The notes beneath the pieces were generated by a model, which saw nothing but the letters and a program-made list of their open reading frames with translations, did no database searches and was not told the origin of the DNA. A stretch of DNA of 11,387 nt, from the IMG/VR virus record IMGVR_UViG_2563366866_000006. One strand, given 5' to 3'. Source of the stretch: a virus (taxonomy: Duplodnaviria > Heunggongvirae > Uroviricota > Caudoviricetes). Positions 4,050 to 10,714 of this stretch are shown in pieces (position 1 is the first letter of the stretch; every line of letters starts with the position of its first letter). The translations under genes and the position numbers were made by a program.

Positions 4050-4265
4050 ATGAAATCCATGGACAAGTTAACAACGGGCATTGCCTACGGCACCTCTGCA
4101 GGCAGTGCTGGCTACTGGTTTTTACAGTGGCTTGATCAGGTCAGTCCGTCACAGTGGGCGGCGATTGGAGTGCTTGGAAGCCTTGTGTTGGGTTTTCTCA
4201 CTTATCTGACAAACCTTTATTTCAAGATTAAAGAAGATAAGCGTAAGGCTGCGAGAGGTGAATAA
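4050..4265 (+). CDS. S: Class II holin, phage 21 S21-type pinholin with dual-start motif (Met1/Met4)
   Basis: 71 aa, [53 protein letters not shown]..., matching S21/EssD as I recall them. Two transmembrane segments. The M-K-S-M start gives the antiholin (71 aa) and holin (68 aa) forms. Strong RBS GGAGGTGAGG. Confidence 0.95.
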
Positions 4266-4762
4266 TGTCGCCATCATTACGCAAGGCTGTAGCAGCTGCT
4301 ATTGGTGGTGGGGCTGTTGCCATAGCGTCTGTGCTCATCACTGGTCCGAGTGGTGACGATGGTCTGGAAGGTGTCAGCTACATACCATATAAAGATATTG
4401 TTGGTGTATGGACTGTATGTCACGGGCATACAGGAAAAGACATCATGCTCGGTAAAACGTATACCAAAGCAGAATGCAAAGCACTCTTGAATAAAGACCT
4501 TGCCACTGTCGCCAGACAAATTAACCCGTACATCAAAGTCGATATACCGGAAACAACGCGCGGCGCTCTTTACTCATTCGTTTACAACGTGGGTGCTGGC
4601 AATTTCAGAACATCGACGCTTCTTCGCAAAATAAACCAGGGCGATATCAAAGGCGCATGTGATCAGTTACGTCGCTGGACATATGCTGGCGGTAAGCAAT
4701 GGAAAGGTCTCATGACTCGTCGTGAGATTGAGCGTGAAATCTGTTTGTGGGGTCAGCAATGA
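4265..4762 (+). CDS. R: SAR (signal-anchor-release) endolysin, T4-lysozyme-like (GH24), phage 21 R21-type
   Basis: 165 aa. Gly/Ala-rich N-terminal SAR domain ([20 protein letters not shown]). Catalytic triad at the canonical positions E35, D44, T50. Start overlaps the holin stop. Confidence 0.95.
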
Positions 4763-5220
4763 ACAGAGTAACCGCGATTATCTCCGCTCTGGTTATCTGC
4801 ATCATCGTCTGCCTGTCATGGGCTGTTAATCATTACCGTGATAACGCCATTACCTACAAAGCCCAGCGCGACAAAAATGCCAGAGAACTGAAGCTGGCGA
4901 ACGCGGCAATTACTGACATGCAGATGCGTCAGCGTGATGTTGCTGCGCTCGATGCAAAATACACGAAGGAGTTAGCTGATGCGAAAGCTGAAAATGATGC
5001 TCTGCGTGATGATGTTGCCGCTGGTCGTCGTCGGTTGCACATCAAAGCAGTCTGTCAGTCAGTGCGTGAAGCCACCACCGCCTCCGGCGTGGATAATGCA
5101 GCCTCCCCCCGACTGGCAGACACCGCTGAACGGGATTATTTCACCCTCAGAGAGAGGCTGATCACGATGCAAAAACAACTGGAAGGAACCCAGAAGTATA
5201 TTAATGAGCAGTGCAGATAG
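4759..5220 (+). CDS. Rz: Rz inner-membrane spanin (i-spanin)
   Basis: 153 aa from the ATG at 4759 ([21 protein letters not shown]...), with an N-terminal transmembrane helix and coiled-coil periplasmic domain. ATGA overlap with the endolysin stop. The ORF-track start at 4747 is a GTG four codons upstream. Confidence 0.9.
4979..5161 (+). CDS. Rz1: Rz1 outer-membrane lipoprotein spanin (o-spanin), embedded in the +1 frame of Rz
   Basis: 60 aa, [24 protein letters not shown]... with lipobox VVGC and a proline-rich stretch ([16 protein letters not shown]). Lies entirely inside Rz, as in lambda and phage 21. Confidence 0.9.
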
Positions 5221-5251: not shown

Positions 5252-5545
5252 TTATTGTGAGCAATAGACACGCGCTTCCAGCGGAGTATAAATGCCTAAA
5301 GTAATAAAACCGAGCAATCCATTTACGAATGTTTGCTGGGTTTCTGTTTTAACAACATTTTCTGCGCCGCCACAAATTTTGGCTGCATCAACAGTTTTCT
5401 CCTGTCCAATTCCCGAAACGAAGAAGTGATGGGTGATGGTTTCCTTTGGTGTTACTGCTGTCGGTTTGTTTCCAACAGTAAACGTCTGTTGAGCACATCC
5501 TGTAATAAGCATTGCCAGAGCGGCAGAAAACAACATTTTTTTCAT
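5252..5545 (-). CDS. bor: Bor lipoprotein (serum-resistance, lysogenic-conversion protein)
   Basis: 97 aa from the ATG at 5543-5545 (MKKMLFSAALAMLITGCAQQTFTV...GLLGFITLGIYTPLEARVYCSQ), near-identical to lambda Bor as I recall it. Lipobox ITGC. The ORF-track start at 5593 is a longer upstream extension that I reject. Confidence 0.92.
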   Translation of the reverse strand: MKKMLFSAALAMLITGCAQQTFTVGNKPTAVTPKETITHHFFVSGIGQEKTVDAAKICGGAENVVKTETQQTFVNGLLGFITLGIYTPLEARVYCSQ

Positions 5546-5904
5546 CTTATTATCCTGCATTGTTAAAAACGGCAGAATCCTATGTGACAACAATTAAACG
5601 ATAGTTAAATGGATTGATGAAAATTAAAACTATATAGGTGGATGCTCAGCCTATTGGAGGAGGGGGGCACTCAGAATCCTGTGGAATGAAATAAACCGCT
5701 CTTTCTGTCCATTACCCTTTTAGCTGCGCTGTATCGTCGCCGTATTCCCGCATTAACCATGACCGTAGCCCGACGGGGAATTCCTTCTGCGTGAGTGTGC
5801 GGGAATAATCAAAAACGATGCACACCGGGTTTTACTGTGCTGACAGACGCAGGGTTACCCTCATAGTCGCTTTTCCGGTGCGATGGTGGAAGAAACCGGG
5901 ATGT

Positions 5905-6099
5905 TTATTCATCATCACTTTGGATTGATGTACATGCTCTCTTTTCTGACGTTAGTCTCCGACGGCAGGCTTCAATGACCCAGGCTGAGAAATTCCCAGA
6001 CCCTTTTTGCTCAAGAGCGATGTTAATTTGTTCAATCATTTGGTTAGGAAAGCGGATGTTGCGGGTTGTTGTTCTGCGGGTTCTGTTCTTAGTTGACAT
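5905..6099 (-). CDS. ylcI: Small YlcI-like (DUF3950) protein, probably a ribbon-helix-helix DNA-binding protein with an arginine-rich N-terminus
   Basis: 64 aa, MSTKNRTRRTTTRNIRFPNQMIEQINIALEQKGSGNFSAWVIEACRRRL.... The pattern (beta-strand RNIRF, then two helices) fits an RHH fold. A homologue sits just upstream of the Nu1 homologue in DLP12 by my recollection. Weak RBS. Confidence 0.65.
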   Translation of the reverse strand: MSTKNRTRRTTTRNIRFPNQMIEQINIALEQKGSGNFSAWVIEACRRRLTSEKRACTSIQSDDE

Positions 6100-6245
6100 G
6101 AGGTTGCCCCGTATTCAGTGTCGCTGATTTGTATTGTCTGAAGTTGTTTTTACGTTAAGTTGATGCAGATCAATTAATACGATACCTGCGTCATAATTGA
6201 TTATTTGACGTGGTTTGATGGCGTAGATGCACGTTGTGACATGTA

Positions 6246-6487
6246 GATGATAATTATTATCATTTTGTGGGTCCTTTCCGGCGATCCGACAGGTTACGGG
6301 GCGGCGACCTCGCGGGTTTTCGCTATTTATGAAAATTTTCCGGTTTAAGGTGTTTCCGTTCTTCTTCGTCGTAACTTAATGTATTTATTTAAAATACCCC
6401 CTGAAAAGAAAGGAAACGACAGGTGCTGAAAGCGAGCTTTTTGGCCTCTGTCGTTTCCTTTCTCTGTTTTTGTCCGTGGAATGAGCA
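6246..6487 (+). other. cos: Lambda-type cos site: cosQ (about 6246-6297), cosN with the 12-nt cohesive end GGGCGGCGACCT at 6298-6309, and cosB with Nu1-binding R elements and an IHF site
   Basis: ...gtgggtcctttccggcgatccgacaggttacg | gggcggcgacct cgcgggttttcgc... matches the lambda right and left termini as I recall them. R3 is at about 6351-6368 (tgtttccgttcttcttcg), R2 inverted at about 6407-6423 (agaaaggaaacgacagg), R1 at about 6448-6464 (ctgtcgtttcctttctc), with an AT-rich IHF-like site between R3 and R2. Nu1 starts 190 bp after cosN, as in lambda. Confidence 0.9.
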
Positions 6488-7007
6488 ATGGAAGTCAACA
6501 AAAAGCAGCTGGCTGACATTTTCGGTGCGAGTATCCGTACCATTCAGAACTGGCAGGAACAGGGAATGCCCGTTCTGCGAGGCGGTGGCAAGGGTAATGA
6601 GGTGCTTTATGACTCTGCCGCCGTCATAAAATGGTATGCCGAAAGGGATTCTGAAATTGAGAACGAAAAGCTGCGCCGGGAGGTTGAAGAACTGCGGCAG
6701 GCCAGCGAGGCAGATCTCCAGCCAGGAACTATTGAGTACGAACGCCATCGACTTACGCGTGCGCAGGCCGACGCACAGGAACTGAAGAATGCCAGAGACT
6801 CCGCTGAAGTGGTGGAAACCGCATTCTGTACTTTCGTGTTGTCGCGGATCGCAGGTGAAATTGCCAGTATTCTCGACGGGCTCCCCCTGTCGGTGCAGCG
6901 GCGTTTTCCGGAACTGGAAAACCGACATGTTGATTTCCTGAAACGGGATATCATCAAAGCCATGAACAAAGCAGCCGCGCTGGATGAACTGATACCGGGG
7001 TTGCTGA

Positions 7008-7033
<26 letters not shown>
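6488..7033 (+). CDS. nu1: Terminase small subunit Nu1
   Basis: 181 aa, MEVNKKQLADIFGASIRTIQNWQEQGMPVLRGGGKGNEVLYDSAAVIKWYAERD..., essentially the lambda Nu1 sequence from memory, with an N-terminal winged-HTH. Confidence 0.97.

Positions 7034-10714
<3,681 letters not shown>

Follow-up and report, generated by a model that had tools for sequence, protein, structure and literature searches.

A 64-codon reading frame beside the right cohesive end of a lambdoid phage genome is shown by sequence comparison to be a real gene, a member of the DUF3950 (YlcI/YnfO) family that is under purifying selection. Its product is probably a small DNA-binding protein of the ribbon-helix-helix (RHH) type, similar to Arc and Mnt, and would act as a transcriptional repressor rather than as a packaging factor. 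For this protein we infer the RHH fold, a dimeric state, binding to DNA, the repressor role and the timing of expression. The window, to which all positions refer, is the whole stretch of 11,387 nucleotides of the Caudoviricetes record IMGVR_UViG_2563366866_000006.

The gene, its family and its neighbors

The reading frame and the genes around it are as follows.

5252–5545, minus strand: bor lipoprotein gene (Pfam Lambda_Bor, E=1e-30; phage 434 annotation), downstream of the reading frame and on the same strand
5905–6099, minus strand: YlcI/YnfO-family (DUF3950) CDS, 64 aa, ATG start, stop codon included (ORF listing and family profiles)
6488–7033, plus strand: Nu1, terminase small subunit (Pfam Phage_Nu1, E=8.8e-100), divergent from the reading frame
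7008–8933, plus strand: A (terminase), from its coordinates and near-identical terminase matches in related loci

A 64-codon ORF is by itself uninformative here, because the 3.5 kb around the gene contain 41 ORFs of at least 30 aa; it is homology, not ORF length, that identifies 5905–6099 as a gene. Its product (MSTKNRTRRTTTRNIRFPNQMIEQINIALEQKGSGNFSAWVIEACRRRLTSEKRACTSIQSDDE) scores above the curated thresholds of both Pfam DUF3950 (PF13132; 73 bits against a cutoff of 25, E=1.7e-20) and NCBIfam YlcI_YnfO_N (NF041551; 37.6 bits against a cutoff of 30), and also matches PHROG 949 (E=2.4e-35). It is identical at 61 of 64 positions to K-12 YlcI, from which it differs by three C-terminal substitutions (Y56C, K60Q, E63D), and equally to the lambda ORF 48112–48303, which carries no annotation in the classic lambda record J02459. 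The initial annotation had called the product a YlcI-like DUF3950 protein of 64 aa from a family with no established function; the family assignment is borne out by these scores, and we found no published function for the family.

The same gene occurs in K-12 as ylcI of the DLP12 prophage and ynfO of Qin, in both cases between the lysis genes and a Nu1 homolog (nohD/nohA) and with a nearly identical upstream region; YnfO-type alleles have another, longer tail. Out of 5,426 complete E. coli genomes, 3,977 (about three quarters) contain the ORF and its upstream DNA, and PGAP annotates ylcI/ynfO in the E. coli records sampled, so the gene, an ordinary one, is already known, its function excepted. 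A list of convergent excludons in K-12 includes the ybcW-ylcI pair, with detection in 50% or more of the RNA-seq samples. Between the gene and bor, the window phage does not have the ybcV/ybcW (lambda p78/p79) segment, and a terminator scan predicted no terminator there. Because the gene, like bor, is transcribed against the late operon, it probably belongs to a lysogen-expressed "moron" cassette at the right end of the genome.

Purifying selection is indicated by a core dN/dS of 0.29, with no pair above 1. As proof of the coding strand dN/dS was rejected, since the wobble-matched antisense frame gives 0.32 and the two are not separable. Against the allele of an Stx phage (L089), 22–24 of the 30–32 nucleotide differences in codons 1–50 fall in synonymous codons, and lambdoid alleles that differ at 25–32 nucleotides have kept the first 50 residues. 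After about residue 50 the C-terminal tail is mosaic, with at least four unrelated types; recombination has exchanged the tails and retained the core. Many apparent homologs at 80–95% identity, from contigs of about 3.5 kb and from non-enterobacterial assemblies, were judged to be lambda control DNA or noisy reads and were left out of the evolutionary analysis.

Predicted fold and reading residues

Two segments of the gene are distinguished by the predicted structure of the product.

6046–6099, minus strand: codons 1–18, a basic N-terminal arm (residues 1–11) and a predicted beta-ribbon strand TRNIRFP (12–18)
5926–6045, minus strand: codons 19–58, predicted helix A (19–32), a G-S-G-N turn and helix B (37–58), which starts with NFSAWV (AF2 secondary structure)

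The AF2 monomer is of moderate confidence (pLDDT 68), with residues 1–18 extended and the two helices at 19–32 and 37–58; the intersubunit ribbon is absent from this model because it is a monomer and the strand can form only in a dimer. Along the strand, polar or basic residues (T12, N14, R16) alternate with hydrophobic ones (I15, F17), which is the RHH-type pattern. Two family alignments show R16 to be invariant and I15 and F17 to be invariant or nearly so. The family motifs found are the I15-R16-F17-P18 strand and N36-F37-S38-A39-W40-V41...A44-C45, invariant or at least 90% conserved: F37 and V41 do not vary, and S38, W40, A44 and C45 are each kept in 90% or more of the sequences. The turn ahead of helix B is G33-S-G-N, with S38 at the helix start. 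The Arg/Thr-rich N-terminus described in the initial annotation (residues 3–17) was confirmed, residues 2–16 holding 5 Arg, 1 Lys and 6 Thr, with all five Arg within residues 6–16. Only members of the E. coli lambdoid clade have this Arg-rich arm; in other members Lys, Asn, Ser and Thr are abundant there, and satellite and orphan homologs read M-A-T-G-x-K-N-N-K-S-x-x-K.

Structural comparison points in the same direction at low significance. Most of the top Foldseek matches in PDB are RHH or RHH-like proteins (StnY/CopG, NikR, Arc, MazE9, HicB, ParD, TacA, CopG), with target-normalized TM-scores up to about 0.65 and about 2 Å rmsd over some 40 residues, the best E of 0.34 not being significant. 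Against a viral library the named top matches are RHH, Arc-type or repressor proteins (best E=0.06, likewise not significant). A profile search of PDB sequences ranked a CopG-family RHH protein second (E=0.43), and a PHROG HicB-like family was matched at E=0.017. Pfam scanning of 31 family members gave RHH_6 in one (E=0.09) and HicB_lk_antitox in two (E=0.016), while searching PDB chains with the single protein sequence returned only chance matches to ribosomal L16. Neither Foldseek, hhalign nor Pfam gave a statistically significant RHH similarity. The RHH-compatible pattern noted earlier agrees with both the sequence and the predicted structure, basic N-terminal arm included, and an RHH fold is likely on this modeling.

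The closest analogs we can name are Arc and Mnt from the immI region of Salmonella phage P22, members of the Arc/MetJ superfamily. They are alike in size (about 50–80 aa) and share with the YlcI-like protein a flexible basic N-terminal arm followed by strand-helix-turn-helix, a layout predicted for the latter, with x-N-[IL]-R-[FW]-P in register and then helix A and a Gly turn; in both cases the proteins are phage-encoded, in or beside the late region, and transcribed against neighboring genes. Using an Arc sequence checked against PDB, hhalign placed residues 13–33 in register on Arc residues 10–30 (RNIRFP on FNLRWP; RNIRFPNQMIEQINIALEQKG on Arc FNLRWPREVLDLVRKVAEENG), which makes residues 12, 14 and 16 the equivalents of Arc Q9, N11 and R13. 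The latter are the base-contacting residues in the Arc-operator structure. The alignment is not significant as sequence or profile similarity (P=0.0096, hhalign probability 4%), and the start of helix B differs, NFSAWV here against NSEIY in Arc. The lambda-type phages also differ from P22 in having no antirepressor gene under control. The best structural neighbors, CopG of pMV158, StnY and ParD/HicB-type domains, are small autoregulatory DNA-binding dimers, but their E values are not significant, they lack the NFSAWVxxAC motif and, unlike regulators of the CopG/ParD/HicB type, the YlcI-like gene has no toxin or replication partner.

On the mechanism we propose, two chains would pair their N-terminal strands (about residues 12–18, T-R-N-I-R-F-P) into an antiparallel ribbon inserted into the major groove, with R16, which is invariant, turned to the bases along with residues 12 and 14, which vary. 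I15 and F17 would pack in a core built by helix A and helix B (NFSAWV...AC), and the basic arm would run along the DNA backbone. The protein would repress its own promoter region and a divergent promoter. A Fur-binding site lies in the same upstream region.

The upstream region and the putative satellite operators

Intergenic DNA extends from the gene start to the right cohesive end (6100–6297) and contains or adjoins these features.

6107–6110, minus strand: weak Shine-Dalgarno-like GGGG, 7 nt before the ATG, the annotated RBS of CPT_434_77 in the phage 434 record
6169–6201, no strand: 33-bp palindrome ATCAATTATGACG-7-CGTATTAATTGAT (as read on the gene's strand) from a repeat search, enclosing a −10-like TATCGT at 6179–6184
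6204–6212, no strand: CACGTCAA (gene's strand), read from the sequence and unique in the window, a −35-like TTGACG on the plus strand
6236–6263, plus strand: sigma-70-like promoter GTGACA-16-TATCAT (10/12 consensus, PWM 10.9), aimed at cos and Nu1 and overlapping the Fur box
6248–6262, no strand: perfect 7-1-7 Fur box TGATAATTATTATCA, an exact match 6 bp from cosQ
6269–6275, plus strand: cosQ GGGTCCT, packaging-termination signal, at the homologous position in the phage 434 record OL657226
6299–6310, plus strand: cosN cohesive-end sequence GGGCGGCGACCT, 12 nt, from alignment with the lambda right and left ends

Packaged DNA ends on the right at 6298, and linear phage records stop at the equivalent of 6298–6302. 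The gene does lie next to cosQ, as had been pointed out: 170 bp separate cosQ from the ATG, and they contain no other gene; cosQ serves in the termination of packaging (PMC4856287). The further claim that the promoter of the gene necessarily overlaps cosQ did not hold up. The minimal functional cos fragment of the Feiss lab (lambda 48446–182) starts at window position 6242 (PMC4856287), so 143 bp of non-cos DNA lie upstream of the ATG, and the sole leftward candidate overlapping cosQ (AGGACC-17-TATCAT) has a PWM score below the median of random window segments. Neither a simple promoter scan nor a PWM scan found a leftward sigma-70 promoter above background in 6100–6480. The rightward promoter, by its PWM score, is in the top 10% of window segments.

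The 123 bp of 6100–6222 recur at 100% identity in lambda, DLP12 and Qin, the 33-bp palindrome with them; in E. albertii the hexamer that it encloses is TATCAT. Its arms pair at 11 of 13 positions, which was equalled in 5 of 1000 shuffles, and its half-sites have no other copy in the window. We regard this palindrome as the best candidate for the DNA target of the lambdoid protein, a putative operator and promoter. Copies of the gene in Stx phages have the same reading head, with an upstream region unrelated to the lambda type; the search for an operator common to both returned only 8–10-mers at about the chance rate, and on this ground TATGACGC and the L089 inverted pair CGTCATAT/ATATGACG were rejected as operator evidence.

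The Fur box was matched in 1 of 2000 whole-window shuffles. Lambda, DLP12 and Qin all retain it, varying at the free central base alone, and in the nohA/nohB (nohD) comparison it has the same sequence as the DLP12 site. Its K-12 counterparts rank with the strongest predicted Fur clusters (nohB 25.3 bits, nohA 22.3 bits), and the nohA site bound Fur in gel shift, its fragment having also been isolated in vivo by Fur titration (Chen 2007, PMC2189734). In the nohA/nohB literature, which predates ylcI/ynfO annotation, the site was assigned to the rightward Nu1-homolog gene. Unlike those of the K-12 cryptic prophages, the present site is in an apparently intact phage beside a functional-looking cos. 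The initial annotation had overlooked this Fur site adjoining cosQ.

Diverged homologs of the gene occur in P4-like/PICI satellites, where they lie between alpA and the primase gene, or as orphans in the chromosome. The satellite gene is alone on its strand. We examined the putative operators of 27 satellite homologs, all of which have good Shine-Dalgarno sequences. In every one of the 27 a 12-bp GTG-N6-CAC palindrome occurs two to four times, most often three times: a pair 23 bp apart falls within a divergent promoter (TTGACG-18-TAxxxT), whose −35 is the motif CACGTCAA of the window, and one lies at the gene's own −10. The P22 mnt/arc genes likewise have a divergent promoter region (Pant/Pmnt) with repeated palindromic operators. 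No GTG-N6-CAC site is found in the lambdoid upstream region. The palindromes vary (for instance GTGCACATACAC and TGTGCGCACA), as do the reading heads (STTKG, SAKKN), and operator distance correlates with distance in residues 10–14 (r=0.64; partial Mantel with the rest of the protein controlled, r=0.63, p=2e-4), maximally at residue 12. Among these 27 homologs no correlation was seen with residues 15–30 (r=0.10) or helix B (r=0.09). Operator distance also correlates with the 5′UTR (r=0.46) and with residues 5–9 (r=0.43), and the head-operator correlation is partly one of physical linkage. The palindromes could instead be bound by another satellite protein and not by the DUF3950 homolog. Taken as a signal in the sequences, the co-variation of divergent-promoter palindromes with ribbon residues 10–14 is the best functional clue that we have. 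Long antisense ORFs in the satellites have no Pfam match and variable lengths, and were dismissed as shadow ORFs; one of them is labeled "transcriptional repressor" in Pasteurella phage Pmp7.

Alternative roles and significance

It had been suggested that the protein interacts with packaging or termini, for instance by binding cosQ, cosN or the right DNA end so as to modulate termination, end protection or cos cleavage. The last gene before cosQ in E. coli lambdoids is indeed this one, the block from cosN through cosQ, Fur box and upstream region to ylcI stays intact even when cosB and Nu1 belong to a different type (L040), and a fusion to a Terminase_2 small-subunit HTH is seen in one satellite homolog (P0187). 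Such a role is nonetheless very unlikely and is not supported by the family, because diverged homologs do not neighbor Nu1/A-type terminase genes (0 of 40 diverged loci have a Nu1 or gpA homolog within 5 kb); moreover the Stx-phage copies adjoin an HNH-type terminase module, and in satellites the specificity residues follow promoter-embedded palindromes, not cos. Defined in-vitro lambda packaging is not known to require more than terminase, IHF and proheads. For cos function the lab standard is a 238-bp fragment that does not include the gene (PMC4856287), though a helper phage might supply the protein in trans. Least probable of all is the RNA binding that the Arg-rich tail had brought to mind, in which RTRRTTTR would contact an RNA hairpin as lambda N does and affect antitermination or mRNA fate. 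The five Arg in residues 6–16 would suit it, and short Arg-rich peptides of lambdoid N proteins do bind boxB RNA; against this, Arg richness is not conserved outside the E. coli lambdoid alleles, the conserved part is the IRFP strand with the two helices, the residues that vary in arm and head do so together with DNA palindromes, and there is no Rfam RNA family in or near the region.

Many of the Foldseek neighbors are RHH antitoxins (MazE9, ParD, TacA, VapB, HicB) and there are the weak HicB-like profile matches, yet that the protein is itself an antitoxin, orphan or in a type II toxin-antitoxin pair, seems to us if anything a shade less credible than a packaging role. The gene has no conserved partner, the downstream DNA differing among the window, lambda/DLP12 and Qin; the 37-aa ORF downstream (5712–5825) has no Pfam match, the satellite gene is solitary on its strand, and the C-terminal tail comes in its several unrelated versions. 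The lambdoid copy might also be a functionless passenger of a real family, kept by tight linkage to cos, which we rate as quite unlikely. It would explain the weak Shine-Dalgarno, the want of a leftward promoter above background and the missing annotation in the original lambda record, and the flanking 123 non-coding bp are more conserved than the gene, as would be expected after a recent spread or if the DNA itself were under selection. Arguing against it are the wide presence of the region in E. coli with PGAP annotation where sampled, the preservation of the first 50 residues through mostly synonymous change, the swapping of tails around a retained core, and K-12 RNA-seq data that indicate transcription. 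An Arc/Mnt-like repressor is our preferred reading; a wider version of it can be put forward as a speculation that we hold to be unlikely. In this version a large class of P4-like/PICI satellites in Enterobacterales and Pasteurellaceae would have DUF3950 proteins as their immunity-type repressors, each hypervariable ribbon "reading head" being paired with its own GTG-N6-CAC operators. Lambdoid YlcI would be their paralog in the helper phage, built on the same, almost unvarying dimer core, and might cross-talk with satellites (for example through mixed dimers that derepress or block them) or, together with Fur, silence the rightward cos/terminase promoter in the prophage.

At the right end of lambda a compact control region packs a strong Fur site, a rightward terminase-directed promoter, cosQ and a putative regulator gene into 200 bp. 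If the repressor reading is true, a y-gene and DUF would gain a concrete mechanism, that of an Arc-like repressor reading DNA with ribbon residues 12, 14 and 16, and the likely switch protein of many P4-like/PICI satellites would have been identified.

Gene, family and neighborhood

In the window the right and left ends of a lambda-like genome meet at cos. The features that bear on the ORF under study are:

4265-4762, endolysin gene
4747-5220, Rz gene
5252-5545, minus strand, bor
5905-6099, minus strand, ORF under study (ATG start, 64 residues)
6236-6263, rightward sigma-70-like promoter GTGACA-16-TATCAT (score 10.9), overlapping the Fur box and aimed at cos and the terminase genes
6248-6262, perfect 7-1-7 Fur box TGATAATTATTATCA, 6 bp left of cosQ
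6269-6275, cosQ, at a position equal to the cosQ annotation in the phage 434 record
6299-6310, cohesive end GGGCGGCGACCT (the last position of the packaged genome is 6298)
6488-7033, Nu1, right of cos
7008-8933, A, after Nu1

The initial annotation had described a small YlcI-like ORF beside cosQ, quoting residues 3-17 of its product; this is correct as stated, and the ORF, cosQ and genome end have all been placed. Several "Lambda_ev" phages match window 5500-6300 at 100% identity and phage 434 matches it at 99.9%; the 434 record labels the ORF "hypothetical protein, DUF3950". Relative to lambda and DLP12 (a K-12 prophage), ~1.1 kb with ybcV/ybcW (lambda p78/p79) is absent at 5600-5888, and lambda homology restarts 17 bp beyond the ORF stop codon. 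The sole ORF in the interval to bor encodes 37 aa (5712-5825, minus strand; hypothetical in the phage ev243 annotation). With no terminator predicted in that interval, one transcript could cover both ylcI and bor in this phage. The plus-strand segment 426-549, close to the window's left edge and preceding the lysis genes, matches the Hfq-binding sRNA STnc490 of Rfam with 146 bits (gathering score 56).

The ORF is a genuine gene, already annotated and extremely widespread. Its product scores 73 bits for Pfam DUF3950 (curated threshold 25) and 37.6 bits for NCBIfam YlcI_YnfO_N (curated threshold 30), and matches PHROG 949 (function unknown) at 2.4e-35. It shares 61 of 64 residues with K-12 YlcI from DLP12 and likewise 61 of 64 with lambda ORF 48112-48303, which is unannotated in the classic lambda record J02459. 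The ORF and its upstream region are carried by 3,977 of 5,426 complete E. coli genomes, in up to 12 copies per genome, which PGAP names ylcI or ynfO. Median dN/dS over the conserved core is 0.29, with no pair above 1, and in codons 1-50, 24 of the 32 nucleotide differences from the Stx-phage allele L089 fall in synonymous codons. The antisense frame with coinciding wobble positions gives a similar dN/dS (0.32), so this measure alone does not pick the coding strand; the strand is given by the start codon, the Shine-Dalgarno sequences and a reading frame that stays open in every sequence. The C-terminal part, from about residue 50 on, is mosaic: E. coli phages carry four versions of this tail that are unrelated to one another. 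Our literature search found no functional study of ylcI, ynfO or DUF3950; in one computational survey, ybcW and ylcI form a convergent excludon seen in at least half of the RNA-seq samples from K-12, which implies that ylcI is transcribed in K-12.

The family is small: clustering at 50% identity gives 141 representatives, of which many are noise resembling control DNA; genuine diverged members of the family are from Enterobacterales and Pasteurellaceae. Many matches of 80-95% identity, from ~3.5-kb contigs or non-enterobacterial assemblies, were left out of the homolog analysis. Apparent homologs in Streptomyces, Cohnella, Arcanobacterium and other non-enterobacterial sources were judged to be lambda control DNA or error-rich reads thereof. 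The suspect set (loci L003-L030, L042 and L055; proteins P0001-P0120) includes an Arcanobacterium "plasmid unnamed1" (3,566 bp), Pseudomonas contigs of ~48.4 kb and ~3.5-kb ENA contigs; these entries resemble lambda spike-in or sequencing-control DNA, and have yielded names such as "YlcI/YnfO family protein [Staphylococcus aureus]".

Every copy of the gene in E. coli lambdoids falls between lysis cassette and packaging genes and is read against the direction of late transcription. The copies of the window, lambda, DLP12, Qin (another K-12 prophage) and 434 adjoin lambda-type cos and Nu1. An Escherichia prophage locus, L040, is nearly identical to the window from cosN toward the left (cosN itself, cosQ, Fur box, upstream region and gene) and has cosB and Nu1 of another type (36% identity); comparison of L040 4400-4860 with window 6100-6500 puts a mosaic boundary just right of cosN, at about window 6330. 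A role in packaging or at the genome termini, raised in the initial annotation, finds no support in this comparison. In Stx phages BP-4795 and JLK-2012 the gene's neighbor, 42 bp away, is an HNH endonuclease gene with a different terminase behind it, and in the 40 diverged loci examined neither Nu1 nor gpA has a homolog within 5 kb; the link to lambda-type cos thus characterizes a single clade and not the family as a whole. Most of the 40 are P4-like or PICI satellites (with integrase, AlpA-type excisionase and primase) and the rest are orphan chromosomal loci; capsid-forming Enterobacter PICIs also have YlcI/YnfO proteins according to a published survey. Outside E. coli lambdoids a single protein hints at a packaging link: P0187 (L090 4714-5103; a P4-like satellite in a Logan assembly), of 129 aa, joins DUF3950 to a Terminase_2 small-subunit N-terminal HTH (E=1.7e-6), and may be a genuine fusion or an artefact of sequencing or annotation.

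Predicted fold

The product likely has a ribbon-helix-helix (RHH) fold, and the guess to that effect in the initial annotation was probably right. Family alignments have invariant R16, F37 and V41, and conserve I15, F17, I25, S38, W40, A44 and C45 in at least 90% of sequences. An AlphaFold2 monomer model from a 21-sequence alignment has an extended segment (1-18) and helices at 19-32 and 37-58, at modest pLDDT (68); this layout is what a modeled RHH monomer would look like when it lacks its partner chain. Foldseek gave no significant match to the model; most of its top 50 PDB matches, none significant, are RHH or RHH-like (StnY/CopG family, NikR, Arc, MazE9, HicB, ParD, TacA, CopG and MatP), aligning at ~2 A rmsd across ~40 residues. 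The named top matches in a viral structure library are "ribbon-helix-helix", "Arc-type" or "repressor" proteins.

Arc Q9, N11 and R13 contact bases in the Arc-operator structure. Profile-profile comparison with five classical RHH proteins placed residues 13-33 on Arc 10-30 in register (RNIRFPNQMIEQINIALEQKG in the ORF product, FNLRWPREVLDLVRKVAEENG in Arc; P=0.0096, with an hhalign probability of only 4%), using an Arc sequence that agrees with PDB 1arq/1par. In this register T12, N14 and R16 correspond to the three Arc residues, and I15 and F17 would face the core.

Candidate satellite operators and the predicted reading head

Upstream regions of 27 satellite homologs were compared. The DUF3950 gene in satellites is alone on its strand, embedded between two leftward operons. 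Its Shine-Dalgarno sequence is good, and its -10 element, often TATAGT, stops ~28 nt short of the ATG. The upstream region also carries a divergent promoter (TTGACG-18-TAxxxT) and a 12-bp near-palindrome, GTG-N6-CAC, present two to four times and usually three times. One pair of copies, spaced 23 bp apart, occupies the spacer and start site of the divergent promoter, and the third lies at the gene's own -10/+1. Copies are alike within an element, and the inner bases vary between elements (GTGCACATACAC, TGTGCGCACA, GTGTTTAAACAC, GTGCGGCCACAC and others). The layout fits an autoregulated repressor also controlling a divergent operon, here toward primase.

The candidate operators co-vary with the reading head, residues 10-14 of the predicted ribbon, which directly precede the invariant IRF.

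Correlation of operator sequence with segments of the gene in satellites
Segment, r
Residues 10-14, 0.64
Residue 12 alone, 0.62
Last 20 nt of 5′UTR, 0.46
Residues 5-9, 0.43
Residues 15-30, 0.10
Helix B, 0.09

Controlling for the remainder of the protein, the partial Mantel correlation for residues 10-14 is 0.63 (p=2e-4). Since the 5′UTR and residues 5-9 also correlate, part of the signal is simple linkage of neighboring DNA; the peak is at the residues predicted to face bases, which are farther from the operators than is the 5′UTR. The helices and tails of loci L054 and L046 are almost the same; their heads (STTKG vs SQLKN) and their operators differ. This covariation is the strongest, still indirect, support for DUF3950 proteins being sequence-specific DNA binders that would act through the N-terminal ribbon.

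Long ORFs run antisense to the satellite gene in the wobble-coincident frame (L083, L044, L059, L067 and L077). In L083 (Pasteurella phage Pmp7) one at 4435-5109 (minus), annotated as "transcriptional repressor", opposes the DUF3950 gene at 4853-5011 (plus). These ORFs vary in length and have no Pfam match, and so are probably shadow ORFs, the real small gene having been missed.

Upstream region, Fur site and cos

The claim that the promoter of the ORF necessarily overlaps cosQ does not hold. The minimal cos fragment of packaging work (lambda 48446-182) starts at window 6242, leaving 143 bp between 6099 and 6242 outside it. Of this, 6100-6222 (123 bp) is 100% identical among the window, lambda, DLP12 and Qin. 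A PWM scan brought out no clear leftward sigma-70 promoter (best 7.9, against a median of 7.6 for window segments); AGGACC-17-TATCAT, overlapping cosQ and the Fur box, scores 6.5. On the gene's strand CACGTCAA at 6212-6205 is the motif that forms the -35 of the satellite divergent promoter. It is followed by a 33-bp palindrome, ATCAATTATGACG-7-CGTATTAATTGAT, at 6201-6169 (matched in 5 of 1000 shuffles), which contains a -10-like TATCGT (TATCAT in E. albertii) and AATT cores whose centers are 23 bp apart by count, the spacing of the first two satellite operators. The palindrome is a candidate operator and promoter of the ORF. The Stx-phage alleles have the same reading head and an unrelated upstream region, in which no shared motif rose above chance, weakening the idea of autoregulation for the lambdoid clade.

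An exact Fur-box match occurred in 1 of 2000 shuffles of the window; the box is kept in lambda, DLP12 and Qin, differing solely at the unconstrained central base, and given the fragment start it lies inside "cos" as used experimentally. The K-12 equivalents are known: the nohB cluster scores 25.3 bits, third strongest in a genome-wide table, and the nohA cluster 22.3 bits; Fur shifted a nohA oligonucleotide, and Fur titration in vivo had earlier yielded the fragment (Chen et al. 2007, PMC2189734). The noh Fur site was assigned to the rightward gene at a time when ylcI/ynfO had no annotation, an assignment that agrees with the good rightward promoter at 6236-6263. We found no literature on what the site means in an active phage, whether iron-dependent transcription across cos or Fur beside cosQ during packaging.

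The best explanation, which we favor with some reserve, is that the ORF product would be an Arc/Mnt-like dimeric repressor encoded in the right-end, lysogen-side cassette of lambdoid genomes, its target possibly in the ORF's own upstream region. There is little new in the gene itself; what we infer of DUF3950, that it would be a family of RHH repressors whose heads and operators are matched to each other in phage satellites, is moderately new.
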